The translations under genes and the position numbers were made by a program. From IMG/VR virus record IMGVR_UViG_3300021255_004328: a stretch of 28,456 bases of DNA, one strand, 5' to 3'. Source of the DNA: a virus (lineage: Duplodnaviria > Heunggongvirae > Uroviricota > Caudoviricetes). The notes under the pieces were generated by a model that saw only the letters and a list, made by a program, of their open reading frames with translations, was not told the DNA's origin and ran no database searches. Shown here in pieces: positions 2,037-26,208 of this stretch. How positions within the stretch are numbered: the first letter of the stretch is position 1; each line of letters starts with the position of its first letter.

Positions 2037-2067
2037 AATTTACTCCTTATTGATTTGTTACAATAAT

Positions 2068-2096
2068 AATATAAAAAGAAATTATTAGAAGTTTAA
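2068..2096 (-). promoter_or_regulatory. Class I (early-type) promoter TTAAAC-N17-TATATT
   Basis: TTAAAC at 2096-2091, 17-nt spacer, TATATT at 2073-2068, then ATTATTGTAA. Same layout at three other sites. Confidence 0.75.
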
Positions 2097-2115
2097 ATAA
2101 ATTTATCCTCAATTC

Positions 2116-9507: not shown

Positions 9508-9795
9508 TTACCTCAAATCTAATTCTACGCCATCAAAAATTTCAGGCCATATATCAAGAAGCTTATCTGCGACTCTTGTTGGACACATACACTTCTTAAC
9601 TGTATATACTCTGAACAACTCAGTTATATCCTTCCAATCACAGGGCTCTCCGTTCTTGTCAATCAATTCATCATCTTCATCAAGAGCATATTGCTCTAAT
9701 GAAACGAAATCGCGAACTGCTTTTGACTCTTCGTCATTTGAATGATGAGAAACATAAACATCATAATCAGCATCGTCGTCTTTACCAAGCCACAT
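9508..9795 (-). CDS. Hypothetical protein, member of the PxFF(D/E)G paralogue family
   Basis: Ends CMCPTRVADKLLDIWPEIFDGVELDLR. Confidence 0.8.
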   Translation of the reverse strand: MWLGKDDDADYDVYVSHHSNDEESKAVRDFVSLEQYALDEDDELIDKNGEPCDWKDITELFRVYTVKKCMCPTRVADKLLDIWPEIFDGVELDLR

Positions 9796-17248: not shown

Positions 17249-17277
17249 AAAAACGTCCTCCTTTATCTTACAAATAT

Positions 17278-17306
17278 AATATAAAGAAGGACAGTCAAAA
17301 GTTTAA
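17278..17306 (-). promoter_or_regulatory. Class I (early-type) promoter TTAAAC-N17-TATATT
   Basis: TTAAAC at 17306-17301, 17-nt spacer, TATATT at 17283-17278, then ATATTTGTAA. Confidence 0.75.
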
Positions 17307-17325
17307 TTTTTTGAAAAAAAAATTT

Positions 17326-20093: not shown

Positions 20094-20693
20094 TTACTCA
20101 AAATGCATACCACACTTCTTGCACTTTTTTACAGTTAAAAAGTCTTCAAAACCACAAGTCGGACAGGCCACTTTAGGAGCAGCCTTTAACACTGTTACAC
20201 TTGATGCTGCATATTGCATATTTTTACCACCTGCAGTCTTTGAAAGATAACCTGTAATTCTTTTTGGGTGAGGTGTTAACTTTTCACCCTCAGATTCTGT
20301 ATCAAGTGTTTCTGCGATGTCCATTTTATCGAAAAACTCAGGACATACAGAAGTTATCTTTTCCAATACTTCTTGATTTACAAACACCTTATAATTGTGT
20401 TCAAGAATATAAGTATGAAGATTTGGAATATCTTCTGTTTCAAAATAATCTGAAGCGTTACGATATACATCACGGAAGTCAATAAGAAGATAATCTTTTC
20501 CTGCGTCAATCTTCGCAAATGTAAGATTGATACCTTCAACGGATTTTACTTTTCCACCACGAGGATCATCATATCTAATTATAAACTTTGCAAGTCTATC
20601 TCCAATACCTTCAGGAGTAAGATGCCCAGGAGATACATCATAGCCTTCTACAGTATGAATAAGCCTTGTGATTTTATCAAAAATTTTATTCAT
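20094..20693 (-). CDS. PxFF(D/E)G-family protein with a C-terminal zinc ribbon
   Basis: VFVNQEVLEKITSVCPEFFDKM and CPTCG...CKKCG. Confidence 0.85.
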   Translation of the reverse strand: MNKIFDKITRLIHTVEGYDVSPGHLTPEGIGDRLAKFIIRYDDPRGGKVKSVEGINLTFAKIDAGKDYLLIDFRDVYRNASDYFETEDIPNLHTYILEHNYKVFVNQEVLEKITSVCPEFFDKMDIAETLDTESEGEKLTPHPKRITGYLSKTAGGKNMQYAASSVTVLKAAPKVACPTCGFEDFLTVKKCKKCGMHFE

Positions 20694-21135
20694 CTAAACT
20701 ATAAAACTCCAATCCCGAAAAGAACAATGGGTAGCAATCACAAATGTCACTAATCGGTGTGTCATCATCAACCCAAACCTTCGCTTTATCTTTAAGCAAA
20801 TACTTTCTTAGTAGTCTTAAATCATTCAAGCCTTTGATACACATATCTGCTGATAGAAACATCCAAATGCTGCTTGTATCCCAATGGAACAATGTTGAAG
20901 ATGGATGCTCAGTATCAATGCTTGCTTGAAGTCCTCTCATATCAAAAATCTTTTCATCAGGAGTTACACGAAGATGCAGTTCATAAATGTTTTCAATATG
21001 ATTGTCTTTTGTAAATGTGTTTATCTCCCAGTCATCTTCGTCTTCAAGAGTTGATGGTGGTAAACGCTCTTCCTGCTTCTTGAGCACTCGCTGTTTATTT
21101 CTTTCCTTCCATCTTTCTTCTCTTGCTTTGTTCAT
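20686..21135 (-). CDS. Hypothetical protein, PxFF(D/E)G family
   Basis: Ends VWVDDDTPISDICDCYPLFFSGLEFYSLDE; overlaps both neighbours. Confidence 0.8.
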   Translation of the reverse strand: MNKAREERWKERNKQRVLKKQEERLPPSTLEDEDDWEINTFTKDNHIENIYELHLRVTPDEKIFDMRGLQASIDTEHPSSTLFHWDTSSIWMFLSADMCIKGLNDLRLLRKYLLKDKAKVWVDDDTPISDICDCYPLFFSGLEFYSLDE

Positions 21136-21374
21136 AAGTCCTTTATCTCCAAATTGATGCCCTCGAAGTATGTAGGAGACATATCTATAAGTCTTTCAAC
21201 AACGATAGGCGATGCAATAACCTTAAGTGCATCTTTAATCTTCAGATGGCAATAAACTTCGTAGCCCTGTGTGTACAAAACATCCCAGCATCTATCTAAA
21301 TCGAGTACGCCGCCATCTGTAGCATCATCAAACTTATTATCAATTACATATTTTAATGCTTCGTTATCATTCAA
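21132..21374 (-). CDS. Hypothetical protein, PxFF(D/E)G family (smallest member, 80 aa)
   Basis: Ends VIASPIVVERLIDMSPTYFEGINLEIKDL. Confidence 0.8.
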   Translation of the reverse strand: MNDNEALKYVIDNKFDDATDGGVLDLDRCWDVLYTQGYEVYCHLKIKDALKVIASPIVVERLIDMSPTYFEGINLEIKDL

Positions 21375-21723
21375 ATGACTTCACCTCGAACTGTTCAACG
21401 CCGTCAAAGTATGCTGGGTCCATTCCCATAAAAAACTTTATAACGTATTCATCTCCTATGATGCCTTTTTCATTGCTGCAAATAATGTTGTGAAATGCGT
21501 GCATCACAGGCGCGGGCCATTCTGAAATATGAATTAAGTCAACACTTTTTAGTTCTCTTAAATCATAATCAAGGCCTTTAGTAATCCTGTCCATAATATC
21601 GTTAAACTGGTCAGCTCTTTTAACAAGGTCACCACAAGGATTTTCATAATCGGTGTTTTCTTCCATATTGTAAATCTGTCTCAATCTTTCAATTAAAAAA
21701 GATGGTGGGCTGTTTTCTTCCAT
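21367..21723 (-). CDS. Hypothetical protein, PxFF(D/E)G family
   Basis: Ends IIGDEYVIKFFMGMDPAYFDGVEQFEVKSFE. Confidence 0.8.
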   Translation of the reverse strand: MEENSPPSFLIERLRQIYNMEENTDYENPCGDLVKRADQFNDIMDRITKGLDYDLRELKSVDLIHISEWPAPVMHAFHNIICSNEKGIIGDEYVIKFFMGMDPAYFDGVEQFEVKSFE

Positions 21724-21737
21724 AACTTAACACCTCA

Positions 21738-22226
21738 TTAAAAGACTTTCATTGTTGACTCAATTACATCACTTTCACCAATTAAAGTCAACCCATCAAA
21801 AAAGTCGGGGATTATATCAATAAAAAGCTTAAGTGTTGTTTCATCAACCAAAATTTTTGGTTTTTCCTTTTTGAACTTTTCATCCATCTCAACTGCAATT
21901 GAAGGGATTTCAACAATTGATTTTCTGTCAGACGGAGAAATCATCATCAAGTTGAAATACCTAAAAGGGTATTCACACACAATATAATCAAGAATACTTT
22001 TTGCCCGCATCACCTGATAATCTTTTGCAATCTTCTGAGCAGACTTCATTGCAAACTCTGCATCTGTTCTACAATAAGCATCAAACAAAGCCTGCATAGC
22101 GTCTGCGTGTTTGTTACTAAACTCATTCTCAGTACGAGCTGCCACTTCTTTCCACGCCTGTCGTATGCGGTTAGCGCGTTTAGCAATCAATTTTTCTCTA
22201 AGTTCAGTTGCTCGTTTCTCAGTCAT
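21738..22226 (-). CDS. Hypothetical protein, PxFF(D/E)G family
   Basis: Start moved to ATG 22226 (8-nt overlap with the ligase stop). Contains ILVDETTLKLFIDIIPDFFDGL. Confidence 0.8.
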   Translation of the reverse strand: MTEKRATELREKLIAKRANRIRQAWKEVAARTENEFSNKHADAMQALFDAYCRTDAEFAMKSAQKIAKDYQVMRAKSILDYIVCEYPFRYFNLMMISPSDRKSIVEIPSIAVEMDEKFKKEKPKILVDETTLKLFIDIIPDFFDGLTLIGESDVIESTMKVF

Positions 22227-23289
22227 CTGCAAGCCCTTCAATATGTGGGATGATCTCACCGCGTTTTACAATCTTTACTTTTGAGCCAATCTCAATTCCA
22301 CGAGCAGCAAGCCATTTTGTATTTGAACAAGAAGCTCTTTTTACTGTTGTTCCGTTCAACTCAACTGGCTCAATAAGAGCAACTGGGCTGAAATACTTTC
22401 CTGACTGAGACCAATCAAAACCAATAACTGTTGCAACTGCAACATCAAGTTCAAACTTGATTGCACAACTGTTCTTTGGTGTTCTGTTCTTAAGGTCTTC
22501 GTAATCAATTACTGCAGGCTTTACAACTACGCCATCAATATCATATTCAATGTTTTCACGGTTTTCATACTGTGAAGTTCTAAACTCAAATGCTTCCTCA
22601 ACAGAAGAAACTTTCTTGAAAGCAGGGATTTCAAAACCGTTGCAAACAAGATACTTAAGTTTGTCTTCTTCAGTTGTAATGAATTTCTTTTCAGCAGTTT
22701 CCTGCATATCGTAGGCAACAAAGTTGAGGTTGTCAAGTTCTGAACCGTCAAGATGTTTCATAATTCCTGCTGCGGCATTGCGGCAGTTCTTCATCTTGTC
22801 TTTGTAGTTTTTATTGAACATTGAGTGAGACATCAAGATTTCGCCACGAATTGAACCTGTAAGAGGCGGGTTTACACAATCAAGCTGAACACCTTTTACA
22901 AGCTTTGCATTTTCTGTAATGTCATCGCCTTCAAAACCTGTTCCACGAGTTACTGCCTGAACAAGTTTTCCGTTGCGGTATTTAAGTTCAATTCCTGCAC
23001 CGTCCATCTTCTGTTCCATCATATAAATGCCTGGGTGCTTTTTGAACCAATCTTTGAACTCTTCTTCGTTCTTACATTTTGCAAGAGTACCTGTAACCAA
23101 GTCGTGTTTTGCTTTTGGGAAGCCTTCAACGTGGTCATCATAGGTTACTGTATCAACATAAGTTGGGTCAAGAGTTTTAAGTTCATTGACAAGCTGGTCG
23201 AACTCCTTATCTGACATAATAGGATTTGCTTCGCCGTAAGCCTTTGAAGCTTCTTCGATCTTTGCTTTAAGTTCGTCAATTCTTGCCAT
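22219..23289 (-). CDS. ligA: NAD-dependent DNA ligase, short form (Ia + adenylation + OB domains only)
   Basis: Domain Ia PIMSDKEFDQL, motif I EQKMDG, TRGTGFEGDDIT, IRGE, YDIDGVVVK, AIKF and OB KRGEIIPHI. Stops 6 residues after the OB motif, with no Zn finger, HhH or BRCT. Confidence 0.92.
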   Translation of the reverse strand: MARIDELKAKIEEASKAYGEANPIMSDKEFDQLVNELKTLDPTYVDTVTYDDHVEGFPKAKHDLVTGTLAKCKNEEEFKDWFKKHPGIYMMEQKMDGAGIELKYRNGKLVQAVTRGTGFEGDDITENAKLVKGVQLDCVNPPLTGSIRGEILMSHSMFNKNYKDKMKNCRNAAAGIMKHLDGSELDNLNFVAYDMQETAEKKFITTEEDKLKYLVCNGFEIPAFKKVSSVEEAFEFRTSQYENRENIEYDIDGVVVKPAVIDYEDLKNRTPKNSCAIKFELDVAVATVIGFDWSQSGKYFSPVALIEPVELNGTTVKRASCSNTKWLAARGIEIGSKVKIVKRGEIIPHIEGLADD

Positions 23290-23310
23290 ATTTTAACTCC
23301 TTACAATAAT

Positions 23311-23339
23311 AATATAAAGAAAAGAAGCCGTAAGTTTAA
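23311..23339 (-). promoter_or_regulatory. Class I (early-type) promoter TTAAAC-N17-TATATT
   Basis: TTAAAC at 23339-23334, 17-nt spacer, TATATT at 23316-23311, then ATTATTGTAAGGAG. Confidence 0.75.
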
Positions 23340-23672
23340 TTACGGCATCTCAAAAATGTCAATTTTTTCAAAGTATTTTGGGTCGTAATTATCGACTAAC
23401 CATTGAATACAGTCTTTAGGCATAAAAACCGCGTCCATTTGCTCCATATACGCTTTATAACTATCAAGGTGCAAACAACCATTATCCCATCTGTCCGCGA
23501 AACGGTCGCCTCTTTCATCATAGATTTTTGTATCATTTGGATTGTCAGGGTCGGGTTTAATTTGCCACCTTAAAGTAAGTATCGACTTATGAGCCCAATC
23601 ATCGCCATAACAGGCTTTCAGGATTTTCGCAAATTCGCTCTGCGGCTCCGTATATCGCGGCATCCCAGTCAT
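23340..23672 (-). CDS. Hypothetical protein, PxFF(D/E)G family
   Basis: Ends VFMPKDCIQWLVDNYDPKYFEKIDIFEMP. The 5' 74 nt overlap the FlgM-like ORF in another frame. Confidence 0.7.
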   Translation of the reverse strand: MTGMPRYTEPQSEFAKILKACYGDDWAHKSILTLRWQIKPDPDNPNDTKIYDERGDRFADRWDNGCLHLDSYKAYMEQMDAVFMPKDCIQWLVDNYDPKYFEKIDIFEMP

Positions 23673-23718
23673 AAGTACCGTCCTTAATTGCTTTCTTAAT
23701 CATTTCAACCTTGCTCAT
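23599..23718 (-). CDS. FlgM-like anti-sigma-factor peptide (39 aa)
   Basis: Not in the ORF track. MSKVEMIKKAIKDGTYDWDAAIYGAAERICENPESLLWR, with TGATG coupling and GGAGG RBS. KVxxIKxAIxxGTYxxD...AERI matches the sigma-binding C-terminal half of FlgM. Confidence 0.65.
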   Translation of the reverse strand: MSKVEMIKKAIKDGTYDWDAAIYGAAERICENPESLLWR

Positions 23719-23939
23719 CAGTTTCCTCCCATAGCTTCTTTGATAAAGCCATATATTTCCTCAACTGTTGCATCAACAAGCAAGTCATTTCCGTTCTGAA
23801 AATAAACCCAACTCTTTTTATCATCGTCCTCATCAGGCTCAATTGCTGTTACCCAAGGCAAGAAAATCAACTTACCGCCGATAAGTAAAATACCTCTTGT
23901 TGGGTCAGTTGATTGAAAAGTACTGGTAAATGGTGGCAT
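23718..23939 (-). CDS. FlbD/SwrD-like small protein
   Basis: VTAIEPD...SWVYFQNGNDLLVDATVEEIYGFI parallels the FlbD IE.IE..PDT.ITL.NG....V.ES.EEV...I pattern. AAGGAG RBS. Confidence 0.5.
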   Translation of the reverse strand: MPPFTSTFQSTDPTRGILLIGGKLIFLPWVTAIEPDEDDDKKSWVYFQNGNDLLVDATVEEIYGFIKEAMGGN

Positions 23940-23961
23940 ATAAATCTCCTTTACAAGAATA

Positions 23962-23969
23962 ATATTAAC
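23962..23969 (-). promoter_or_regulatory. GTTAATAT promoter motif (class II) upstream of the FlbD-like/FlgM-like operon
   Basis: Exact intergenic motif followed by TATTCTTGTAAAGGAG. Confidence 0.6.
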
Positions 23970-24001
23970 TTAAAAACAAATATAAATTTATTCTTATCTT
24001 T

Positions 24002-24037
24002 TCATATTTATTCCCTCCATTATAGTTCAAAAATTCG
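24002..24037 (-). repeat. 36-bp exact repeat, copy 2
   Basis: Identical to 2116..2151. Its ATG opens the minigene ATG AAA AGA TAA (24005-23994). Confidence 0.95.
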
Positions 24038-24040
24038 TTT

Positions 24041-24772
24041 TTACAGTTGAATTTCTTCTGCGCCTTTAAGAATATAAATCCAACCCTTTTCCAAGTTTTC
24101 AGTTGTAGAGTCAATAACTGCATCTTCAACATTTGGACAAACCCAGCCAGTTTTCATATCAACAATATCGTTTCTTGTCAAAGTAACGATTTTTGTTTTT
24201 GTGCCTTTTCCCTTTTTAACTGCAAGGAATGTGTACTGAGGAACTGGGCGGCGCATATTCTGCTTTACAGCAACAATACCGACTTTATTATAACGTTCCC
24301 ATTCATCAGAACCAAAGTCCCAACCTGCAGGCATTTTGTTATTAAAGCCGTTATCTTTAAGTTTTTTGTCTTCGTCTTTTGTTACGAGGCAGACGTGATA
24401 GTACTTATCAAAAAATGCTTTTGCTGTTTCTTCTGACTTTGAAATTTTGTCATAATTTTTCAAAAGGATTTCACTAAGAACCGCACAGGGTACACAATGC
24501 TCCCAAGTTGTATCTGTTCCAAAAACAAGGTCAATCCCATTTGCTTCAGCATCGAGAACTGCTTGTGATTTATATTCAACTGTTACATCTTTTGAATAAA
24601 GACGCTGTGAAGGATAAAGTCCATCAGGATGTACACGATAAGCATACGAACGAATAAGTGAACCAATTTTACTTTCACCTAAAACATCAGCTGATGTCTT
24701 AAGCCAATCAACAAATTCTTTAGCGGGTAAATCACCTGCAAGAGCTTTAGGGTTATATTTCTTTCCTTTCAT
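24041..24772 (-). CDS. Putative HNH / His-Me-finger-like nuclease-fold protein
   Basis: WEHCVP followed by CLVTKDEDKKL...NKMPAGW...DEWERY, an EHxxP beta-beta-alpha-Me-like layout. Confidence 0.45.
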   Translation of the reverse strand: MKGKKYNPKALAGDLPAKEFVDWLKTSADVLGESKIGSLIRSYAYRVHPDGLYPSQRLYSKDVTVEYKSQAVLDAEANGIDLVFGTDTTWEHCVPCAVLSEILLKNYDKISKSEETAKAFFDKYYHVCLVTKDEDKKLKDNGFNNKMPAGWDFGSDEWERYNKVGIVAVKQNMRRPVPQYTFLAVKKGKGTKTKIVTLTRNDIVDMKTGWVCPNVEDAVIDSTTENLEKGWIYILKGAEEIQL

Positions 24773-24785
24773 TTTTTTTTACCTC

Positions 24786-25295
24786 TTAATCGTAATAATC
24801 TGAAACTTCTTCACCGTTCCACAACTGCATTGGTCCACACCAAGAACCTTTGTAATACCCAGGGATATAGAAACCGCCGTCTTTTGCAGGCTTTGCCATA
24901 ATTCTTTTTGGCTGCAGGCATTCACGGTAGTTTGAAACAACTGTAAAGTCATCCCAGAAGTTTTCGTTATTTGCTTTTGCAAGTTTGTGGGCTTCGTCAA
25001 ACTGTTCTCTTGAACCTTTGAGAACATCAAAACCATATTTTTTATTGCAAGCTTTGTAAGCAGCTTCAACATTTTTCAAAGTTTCTTCGTCAGGAAGTTT
25101 GTAAGAATAACCTGTTCCGCCGCCTTCGTGGTCGAAGTGTGTTTGCTTTGACGGCATTTTGATTACAAGTACTGATTTCTTTGAAGTACCAATAACCTTG
25201 AAGAAGGTTGATGAATTGCACCAATGCTGAACCATAATTGTTCCTGCAGGAATATCTTCAGGTGTCTTCAAAGACTTAATATCAAGCTTTTCCAT
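24786..25295 (-). CDS. Hypothetical phage protein
   Basis: Start moved to ATG 25295 with AAGGAG/GGAG RBS. GTIMVQHW...TFFKVIG and terminal LWNGEEVSDYYD recall a common mobile-element family. Confidence 0.8.
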   Translation of the reverse strand: MEKLDIKSLKTPEDIPAGTIMVQHWCNSSTFFKVIGTSKKSVLVIKMPSKQTHFDHEGGGTGYSYKLPDEETLKNVEAAYKACNKKYGFDVLKGSREQFDEAHKLAKANNENFWDDFTVVSNYRECLQPKRIMAKPAKDGGFYIPGYYKGSWCGPMQLWNGEEVSDYYD

Positions 25296-25306
25296 ACTCC
25301 CTCTCC

Positions 25307-25660
25307 TTACTGAAACTGAAAGTAATTTTTCATTGGACGAATCTCGTCGATGTGATCCATATTCAATACAACGTCGTCCCAAACAATAAACTGAGCAGGG
25401 ATTTCTGCGTCTTTTCCTGCAGCCATTAAAGGCTCGATTATTTCCTTACGAACTTTTTCCTGAGCATCTGCAAGGTCATAAGATGGGACGTGTTCTTTTT
25501 CAAAAGCTTTCTGCCATTCAACTTCAGGTTTGTAAGTCATCATTTTTGTAACTTTTCTAAACCTTATCATCCTGAGGCAAGCATCAGCTTCCTCAAAGAT
25601 ACCTGTGCAATAGCCATCAACTGTTCTAAAACTGTAAAGATTACCCTCAGTAATTATCAT
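25307..25660 (-). CDS. Hypothetical protein, possible SH3/Sm-like barrel with a helical insert
   Basis: Start moved to ATG 25660 with AAGGAG RBS. Confidence 0.7.
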   Translation of the reverse strand: MIITEGNLYSFRTVDGYCTGIFEEADACLRMIRFRKVTKMMTYKPEVEWQKAFEKEHVPSYDLADAQEKVRKEIIEPLMAAGKDAEIPAQFIVWDDVVLNMDHIDEIRPMKNYFQFQ

Positions 25661-25670
25661 ATCTGTCTCC

Positions 25671-26156
25671 TTAGTCTTTAAGAAAGTTTTCGATAAGTTC
25701 TTCACGAACCTGAGCAGGAGTCATACCATCGTGAGCAACAGCCCAGTCAGCCCATTCTGCACGGAAGTTTTCTGACCTAAGGTTGTTTGCGATATATTCC
25801 ATACCCTTTTTGATTTCACCAACTGTTGGGAGGTAAACTCCGTTTGAACCGCCTCTTGAAAGAACTTCGTGAACCCAAATACGATGCTTGTAAGAACTGT
25901 AGCCATAGCGGCGATTTGCAAGTTCATAGCGGTCATATTCACGAATATCACAAGAAGCAAGTTTTGCCTCTTCCTTTGTATCAAAAATTGTTCCGCGGCC
26001 TGATCTCTGTGGGAAGAAAGTTCCGTGTTCAAGGCCTTCAGTAATTACATAGGCGTATTCCCAATTTTTCTCTTCTTCCCAAGTTTTGCGAGAAGAGTCG
26101 AATGAGGTCTTAATAACTGCGTATCCGATGAATTGTGAATAATCTTTCTTAGCCAT
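25671..26156 (-). CDS. Hypothetical protein (probable early gene)
   Basis: AAGGAG RBS; class I promoter variant directly upstream. Confidence 0.85.
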   Translation of the reverse strand: MAKKDYSQFIGYAVIKTSFDSSRKTWEEEKNWEYAYVITEGLEHGTFFPQRSGRGTIFDTKEEAKLASCDIREYDRYELANRRYGYSSYKHRIWVHEVLSRGGSNGVYLPTVGEIKKGMEYIANNLRSENFRAEWADWAVAHDGMTPAQVREELIENFLKD

Positions 26157-26176
26157 AATTTACTCCTTACAAATAT

Positions 26177-26205
26177 AATATAAAGTCAGTTTAATGAAAG
26201 TTCAT
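26177..26205 (-). promoter_or_regulatory. Class I promoter variant ATGAAC-N17-TATATT
   Basis: Same 17-nt spacing and downstream ATATTTGTAAGGAG as the other three copies. Confidence 0.65.
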
Positions 26206-26208
26206 TTT

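Follow-up and report, generated by a model that had tools for sequence, protein, structure and literature searches.

One of the described small proteins to which the locus examined here comes closest is SwrD (FlbD), for which crystal structures have been solved from both B. subtilis and B. burgdorferi (PMC13740483). The hallmarks of SwrD are an Asn15-xxx-Ile/Leu19 pore motif, Glu20, Glu23, and a Pro26-Asp27-Thr28 loop, and the Asn15-xxx-Ile19 motif stabilises the SwrD hexamer (PMC13740483). SwrD was related to RemA, LytTR, and ComK by the authors of the crystal structures, and by Pfam taxonomy about 8% of the annotated SwrD proteins belong to the Spirochaetota (PMC13740483). The spirochaete T. 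denticola has FliA, a FlgM homologue, and a sigma-28-dependent flaB2 (PMC9481697). A described phage system that acts on flagella is TldR, a group of phage-encoded RNA-guided repressors of host flagellin (PMC13418256).

The stretch of DNA that we analysed, here called the window, is 28,456 nucleotides long. A first-pass annotation had described in it an FlbD/SwrD-like gene of 73 codons coupled to an FlgM-like gene and had proposed that the two form a motility-control cassette acting on both the flagellar motor and flagellar transcription. We find that the 73-aa gene is the first gene of a three-gene unit that runs from a promoter-like, multi-copy element through the 73-aa, 39-aa, and 110-aa ORFs to a terminator-like hairpin, with the following features:

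23953-24048, minus strand: multi-copy intergenic element upstream of the 73-aa gene, with a 39-nt box and a 3-codon mini-ORF
23946-23986, minus strand: promoter-like hexamers and proximal motif TATTATTCTTGTAAAGGAG, including the ribosome-binding site
23718-23939, minus strand: 73-aa ORF, sequence MPPFTSTFQSTDPTRGILLIGGKLIFLPWVTAIEPDEDDDKKSWVYFQNGNDLLVDATVEEIYGFIKEAMGGN
23599-23718, minus strand: 39-aa ORF with the FlgM helix motif (residues 1-20)
23340-23672, minus strand: 110-aa ORF, in the +1 frame relative to the 39-aa ORF, with a 74-nt overlap
23346-23327, minus strand: terminator-like hairpin with a T-run; it overlaps the 110-aa stop and belongs to family D1

The sharing of one base between the first two minus-strand ORFs was confirmed, the TGA of the 73-aa ORF (23720-23718) and the ATG of the 39-aa ORF having base 23718 in common in a TGATG junction. 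The 74-nt overlap between the 39-aa and 110-aa ORFs and the closing hairpin were missing from the earlier description. Each of the three ORFs has its own translation signal: AAGGAG lies 6 nt upstream of the 73-aa start; GGAGG lies 6 nt upstream of the 39-aa start, within the invariant M70-G71-G72 codons that end the 73-aa gene; and the 110-aa ORF has a conserved ATG and an AAGGA site. The promoter motif previously noted upstream of the 73-aa ORF is borne out in the form of the promoter-like multi-copy element, where a consensus scan predicts a promoter from a sigma-70-like pair, TTTATA-16-TATTAT, at 23986-23959. The 19-nt motif TATTATTCTTGTAAAGGAG at 23946-23964 is also present upstream of the ligase gene; when up to 3 mismatches are allowed it has 3 matches, where 0.09 would be expected. 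Around the unit lie genes for an NAD-dependent DNA ligase and an RNA ligase, for an ATPase and a phosphoesterase, nuclease genes, and genes of unassigned family. A contig from an RNA library of the source sample covers 23472-23805, which is evidence of presence only, as RNA-library contigs over parts of the unit give neither strand, start, nor true transcription.

The window is collinear with a contig of 306,108 bp (JAZNWZ010000130.1, G002:C130) at 80-95% nucleotide identity, and gut metagenomes of sheep, cattle, and goats, drawn from 12 studies, contain the same DNA. Among viral records the nearest, G001, comprises 23 kb and is rated 8% complete. The element upstream of the 73-aa gene (23953-24048) has at least nine further matches on the 306-kb contig at 80-91% identity, and its 39-nt box (23999-24037) is 97% identical to positions 2113-2151 of the window. 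The mini-ORF of the element (24005-23994), located behind GGAGGG, encodes MKR, or MKK in L002. Family D1 is 42 nt long and has four copies in the window (2057-2098, 17267-17308, 23300-23341, and 26166-26207). Two multi-copy intergenic families precede minus-strand genes, one of the GGAGGG and mini-ORF type and one of the hairpin and CTTTATATTATTATTGTAAG type, and both recur many times on the 306-kb relative.

The ATPase in the window is ~31% identical to ATPases of large phages of Gram-positive bacteria, and a tRNA search of the window gave no hit. A close relative encodes a full-length flagellin (L020:1060-1968, minus strand, equal to G002:C130:75407-76261), and this gene adjoins an HNH-like ORF of 241 aa. 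The best solved relatives of the flagellin are spirochaete FlaB filaments, at 362 bits and an identity of ~68% as read by eye from the alignment (PDB entries 10PP and 10PL, which belong to a study of Treponema flagella, and 9PIL and 9PIM, to one of spirochaete flagella), compared to at most 252 bits and 56% identity in 201 sampled Bacillota genomes. The 306-kb phage was binned in a 2.1-Mb Clostridia MAG without flagellar genes; the binning is probably wrong and could mislead host assignment. We rejected the "Candidatus Fimenecus" label of this MAG (G002) as host evidence since the rest of the bin has no FlhA, FlbD, FlgM, or flagellin, and as a host it also fits poorly with a phage flagellin that is far closer to spirochaete FlaB than to the flagellins of the sampled Bacillota. 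With a Treponema-type FlaB on a close relative and a MAG that lacks flagellar genes, a motile, Treponema-like spirochaete is therefore a plausible host, and the earlier expectation of a motile host is to this extent upheld by the flagellin. The presence of the flagellin gene on the relative also suggests phage interference with flagella. By eye, no sigma-28 promoter (TAAA-N15-GCCGATAA) was seen upstream of this flagellin gene, and the 306-kb contig encodes no recognisable sigma factor (no sigma-70 region 4 match).

The 73-aa ORF has 10 close homologues with 68-96% identity and many invariant columns and is therefore no chance ORF. More distant homologues are few, and a search of 1.8 billion representative proteins returned only P0011 and P0012. 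The phage carrying P0011 also encodes a STAS-domain protein of the anti-sigma-antagonist type (L014:5522-5857), a dUTPase, and an HD protein. No match was obtained when the DNA of 22000-26000 was compared to cultured phages or when the 73-aa protein was used in a tblastn search, PHROGs gave a chance-level match only, and NCBIfam gave none for either the 73-aa or the 110-aa protein. A PDB sequence search with the 73-aa profile returned chance matches and no SwrD chain, the SwrD entries probably being newer than the copy searched. The protein is strongly acidic, with 12 D/E against 5 K/R and a net charge of about -7 as read from the sequence. It has a disordered N terminus of 16 residues, and the chain ends 4 residues past the helix; some relatives extend the chain by DDEQG only.

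A Pfam profile search was the obvious check of the FlbD assignment. With PF06289, which has a gathering score of 24.7 bits, none of the 12 family members matched at an E value of ≤10 and the 73-aa protein did not match at an E value of ≤1, nor did a six-frame search of G001 find a match; of 81 Bacillota genomes sampled with this model, 46 had an FlbD. In a profile-profile comparison (hhalign) against 22 genuine FlbD proteins from Bacillota genomes, the 73-aa family scored 18.0 over 33 columns (P = 0.007; probability, 5.5%), a score reached by 4 of 200 column shuffles. The comparison with RemA gave 17.1 (P = 0.011), and with RemA and FlbD scoring equally, the weak profile signal is therefore not specific to FlbD. 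The FlbD alignment follows the register IE..D..NG...V.E.V.EEI, as in the pattern on which the first-pass annotation was built, and places E34 at Glu23, D38 at Asp27, and S43 at Thr28, with Thr31 in place of Glu20. Asn15 and Ile19 of SwrD lie outside the aligned region, and the corresponding turn of the 73-aa protein is L27-P28-W29; an N-x-x-x-V at the position of the pore motif is found in the distant homologue P0012 only. SwrD's C-terminal tail, which is charged and disordered, is absent from the model of the 73-aa protein, and flagellar-operon context (fla-che; flbD-motAB) is absent around its gene. The nearest Atlas cluster by sequence features that bears a Pfam domain has FlbD on 17% of its members. 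At the level of profile searches, the 73-aa protein is thus no detectable member of the FlbD family; given the weak FlbD-specific signal, there may still be a distant link between the two.

The structural comparison leads to a class of folds and not to one family. An AF2 model of the 73-aa protein, built on a shallow alignment of 12 rows, has a pLDDT of 76 and comprises strands at residues 17 to 20, 23 to 26, 30 to 35, 43 to 47, and 52 to 55, a turn at residues 27 to 29, and a helix at residues 59 to 69. The order of these elements, a β-hairpin and a 3-10 element of one turn, then three strands, then the helix at the C terminus, is the topology of the SwrD crystal structures (PMC13740483). In an exhaustive fold search of the PDB, the first rank was held by RemA (7bme_A; Z score of 5.3 and root mean square deviation of 2.4 Å over 52 residues), followed by the AgrA LytTR domain (3BS1) and the LytTR domain 3D6W, both with a Z score of 4.2, and ComE (4CBV) reached 3.4. 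In the Atlas, LytTR folds had TM scores of 0.66 to 0.68, ComK had 0.64, and an FlbD cluster had 0.65 with 2.0 Å over 57 residues. Foldseek gave nothing below an E value of 1e-3 against the PDB and Swiss-Prot, and the top 30 Swiss-Prot matches did not include SwrD. All of these matches are modest (best Z score, 5.3; Foldseek E values above 1e-3) and fall in a range where common small β arrangements also score. The viral structure library contains many small phage proteins that match, two of which are annotated as flagellar/swarming motility proteins and one as a DNA binding regulator, and the same fold occurs in phages of non-flagellated hosts, including Mycobacterium, Gordonia, and Klebsiella. 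The caution given earlier that similar small β-rich ORFs abound in phages was well founded. As for the FlbD call itself, the SwrD/FlbD type of fold was recovered but family membership was not, and the non-flagellar RemA and LytTR folds match at least as well as FlbD, which takes away part of the ground for a flagellar assignment.

A prediction with four copies of the 73-aa protein scored 0.53, compared to 0.04 for the best control. A score this high was attained by 20 of the 30 proteins known from structures as pairs of one chain and by 1 of the 23 known as single chains, counts that hold roughly since the calibration was made with two copies and the four-copy run lies outside it. A closed ring or a stoichiometry is not derivable from the score. 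The four-copy runs agreed in at least 59% of their contacts, and the pLDDT of the partners was at least 72. In the predicted interface, strand 23 to 26 of one copy pairs with strand 30 to 34 and helix 59 to 66 of the next, which is the cross-subunit sheet described for SwrD (PMC13740483). The pass of this self-association test may reflect a memory of solved RemA-type rings. Together, the modelled fold and head-to-tail self-association are predicted to place the 73-aa protein in the SwrD(FlbD)/RemA/LytTR/ComK class, which is widespread among small phage proteins.

Within this class, the likeness to SwrD/FlbD consists of a chain of ~70 residues with β1-β2, a 3-10 turn, β3 to β5, and a terminal helix, a predicted sheet across subunits formed by β1-2 of one copy with β3-5 of the next, an acidic, Pro-Asp-containing β3-β4 loop, and a weak register IE..D...NG...V.E.V.EEI. 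The 73-aa protein differs in having no Pfam match, no Asn15, no charged C-terminal tail, and no flagellar operon, in its disordered 16-residue N terminus, and in being equally similar to RemA. The suggestion that, when the phage infects a motile spirochaete, the protein works as a functional SwrD/FlbD mimic on the flagellar motor or stator draws on the shared topology and predicted cross-subunit sheet, the FlbD profile comparison (P = 0.007; 4 of 200 shuffles), the FlbD-bearing Atlas neighbour and TM score of 0.65 to the FlbD cluster, the Treponema-type FlaB on a close relative, and the occurrence of SwrD among the Spirochaetota. We nevertheless regard it as quite unlikely, as Pfam FlbD was found neither in the 12 members at an E value of ≤10 nor in the six frames of G001, RemA has the same profile score and the best structural Z score, the Asn15-xxx-Ile19 motif is unaligned with L-P-W at the turn, the charged disordered tail is missing, and phages of non-flagellated Mycobacterium, Gordonia, and Klebsiella have the same fold. 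Since the flagellin of the relative has ~68% identity to host-type FlaB, one would expect an flbD captured recently to be recognisable too, which the 73-aa gene is not. An action on the flagellar motor, as proposed earlier, is unsupported.

The best structural matches, RemA (PF04025; PDB 7BME) and the LytTR domains, share with the 73-aa protein the segment G-x-h-h...h-h-x-h-h-x-P-(D/E) common to all, and RemA forms rings, as the 73-aa protein is predicted to self-associate. These proteins raise the alternative that the 73-aa protein regulates transcription, of the phage or of its host, as a DNA binder like RemA or LytTR, which would agree with DNA-binding RemA, AgrA, and ComE as the best structural matches, with the RemA profile comparison (P = 0.011), with the one viral structural neighbour annotated as a DNA binding regulator, and with the position of the gene among DNA-metabolism genes. 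This is unlikely, in our view, because RemA and LytTR domains are basic DNA binders whereas the 73-aa protein has a net charge of about -7 with five basic residues, and the DNA-contacting arginine loop of RemA, YGRRTR, is replaced by EPDEDDDKK, its β3-β4 loop. None of the members of the 73-aa family has a Pfam match to RemA-like (PF04025) or LytTR (PF04397) either. The strong acidity and the EPDEDDDKK loop argue against RemA/LytTR-type DNA binding and would instead favour a protein target. On balance, we therefore favour a reading of the 73-aa gene as a conserved gene of an uncultivated ruminant-gut jumbo phage of ~300 kb, encoding not an FlbD but a putative acidic oligomer of the SwrD/RemA/LytTR/ComK class with a protein target. 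In the mechanism that we propose, the protein would assemble into a ring- or arc-shaped homo-oligomer, and its acidic β3-β4 loop, which is exposed, would bind a protein of the host or of the phage.

When compared by hhalign to 30 genuine FlgM domains, the 39-aa ORF had a probability of 86% and a P value of 4.9e-6 over 20 columns, a score reached in 0 of 300 shuffles, so the FlgM likeness reported for this ORF is significant at the profile level. Searches with the family models stayed below threshold, with 21 bits for FlgM in Pfam (PF04316; E value, 4e-4) against a cutoff of 25 and 18.9 bits for TIGR03824 against a cutoff of 40.75. Four further variants of the peptide had 19.8 to 20.7 bits for FlgM in Pfam, and the most divergent copy, in which Lys replaces the conserved Gly, lost the Pfam match. 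The likeness is limited to residues 1 to 20 (KVxxIKxAIxxGTYxV), which match the conserved helix-turn EKVxxLKxxIxxGTYxV of FlgM; residues 21 to 39 are unaligned. The product differs from FlgM in being only 39 aa long, in missing the N-terminal half, and in leaving the last helix (ekiAekml) unmatched. A search for longer proteins that contain the peptide found two phage ORFs and no cellular FlgM. In P0013 (L069:671-919), from another phage, 43 in-frame residues with a CxC motif precede the FlgM-like segment to make an ORF of 82 aa; P0013 also has its own GGAG site before an internal ATG, and either a fusion or two genes is possible.

Six of the seven variable sites in the 46 non-overlapped nt of the 39-aa ORF are at third codon positions. 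In the overlap with the 110-aa gene, 10 of 74 sites vary, half as much as in the rest of that gene (75 of 259). Compared to the stand-alone copy in L069, the 39-aa ORF has 17 codons with synonymous changes only and 6 with nonsynonymous changes, and the +1 frame under the peptide encodes nothing similar in L069. This pattern of substitution marks the 39-aa ORF as a genuine gene, and by the profile match its FlgM motif is significant. In the close relatives, the 39-aa frame invariably shares 74 nt with the 110-aa ORF, and gene callers leave it uncalled there, which could also be understood if the frame were no separate gene, being either the N-terminal portion of a product joined to the 110-aa protein by a +1 frameshift or a chance effect of the overlap. 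We give this very little credence, as the 39 codons are kept in L069 with an unrelated +1 frame, the 39-aa ORF has its own GGAGG and the 110-aa ORF its own ATG and AAGGA, and the third-position bias sits upstream of the 110-aa start. The N-terminal half of FlgM carries the export signal. By this textbook route of export, an FlgM-like peptide without the N-terminal half would stay unsecreted and could then keep sigma-28 bound for good. As the most likely reading of the 39-aa product we tentatively put forward a truncated, non-exportable sigma-28 binder.

The 110-aa protein has no family match and no usable match in the Atlas, and its model, with a pLDDT of 46.8, was too poor for a fold search. 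Similar C-terminal motifs (D-x-x-P-x-(F/Y)-F-D/E-G/K) are found in several minus-strand ORFs of the window, 9508-9795, 20686-21135, 21367-21723, 21738-22259, and 23340-23672, the last being the 110-aa ORF.

The occurrence of the two genes across phages gave a mixed result for the proposed coupling. Nine distinct close relatives were compared. In six of them the 73-aa and 39-aa ORFs abut or overlap, the overlap amounting to 1 nt or to 14 nt. In the other three (L007, L010, and L018), a Cys-rich gene of 58 to 59 aa lies between the two ORFs. The inserted gene is zinc-ribbon-like without a family match (L018:3219-3395, L010:311-490, and at the same place in L007). Elsewhere each gene occurs without the other: L071 has kept the 110-aa gene and part of the peptide frame and has no 73-aa gene, L069 and L070 have the peptide without a 73-aa or 110-aa neighbour, and the distant 73-aa homologues (L014 to L017) have other neighbours and no FlgM-like ORF in the DNA covered at these loci. 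HMM scans of all of the loci bore out these absences. In place of the 73-aa gene, L071 (57-2257) has a GH25 lysin and an ORF of CW_7 repeats. The latter ORF continues, without a change of frame, into the final 28 codons of the FlgM-like frame, which is either a junction of recombination within the small gene or an assembly chimera. Apart from the stand-alone L069 and L070, the peptide frame overlaps the 110-aa gene in every copy seen. It is the 110-aa gene, more than the 73-aa gene, to which the peptide is linked, and the adjacency of the 73-aa and 39-aa genes is a feature of one phage clade and not an obligate pair.

These distributions do not agree with a fixed cassette of two genes. That the 73-aa and 39-aa genes form a dedicated two-part system for motility control is suggested by their abutting or overlapping in 6 of 9 relatives within one promoter-to-terminator unit, by the resemblance of both products to flagellar proteins, and by the presence in Treponema of sigma-28, FlgM, and a sigma-28-dependent flaB2 (PMC9481697). 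We consider it very unlikely in view of the Cys-rich gene between the ORFs in three relatives, the absence of a 73-aa gene from L071, the lone peptide of L069 and L070, and the lack of an FlgM-like ORF in L014 to L017. A broader scheme would be protein-based flagellar remodelling in a jumbo phage of rumen spirochaetes, where a non-exportable FlgM mimic would silence the sigma-28-dependent flaB genes of the host, the phage would supply its own FlaB, and a SwrD-fold oligomer would act on the motor. We mention this scheme as a distinctly long shot; if true, it would be a counterpart, made of proteins, to the RNA-guided TldR. As with TldR (PMC13418256), it would concern phage interference with host flagellin expression, and a relative of the present phage also has a flagellin gene. 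It would differ from the RNA-guided TldR in that the candidate regulator is a putative protein mimic of an anti-sigma-factor motif and in that the present phage is a jumbo phage not known to be temperate.

In conclusion, we find that the FlbD look-alike is better described by its predicted fold class, SwrD/RemA/LytTR/ComK, which is widely used by phages, and such a description guards against the over-annotation of phage genes as motility genes. What remains of interest at this locus is a previously unannotated 39-aa gene with an FlgM motif that overlaps another gene, together with the Treponema-type flagellin on a relative, which suggests that spirochaetes are the hosts of these ~300-kb phages of ruminants. 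Should the peptide bind sigma-28, phages would have in it an anti-sigma module of minimal size and a new means of controlling host flagella.
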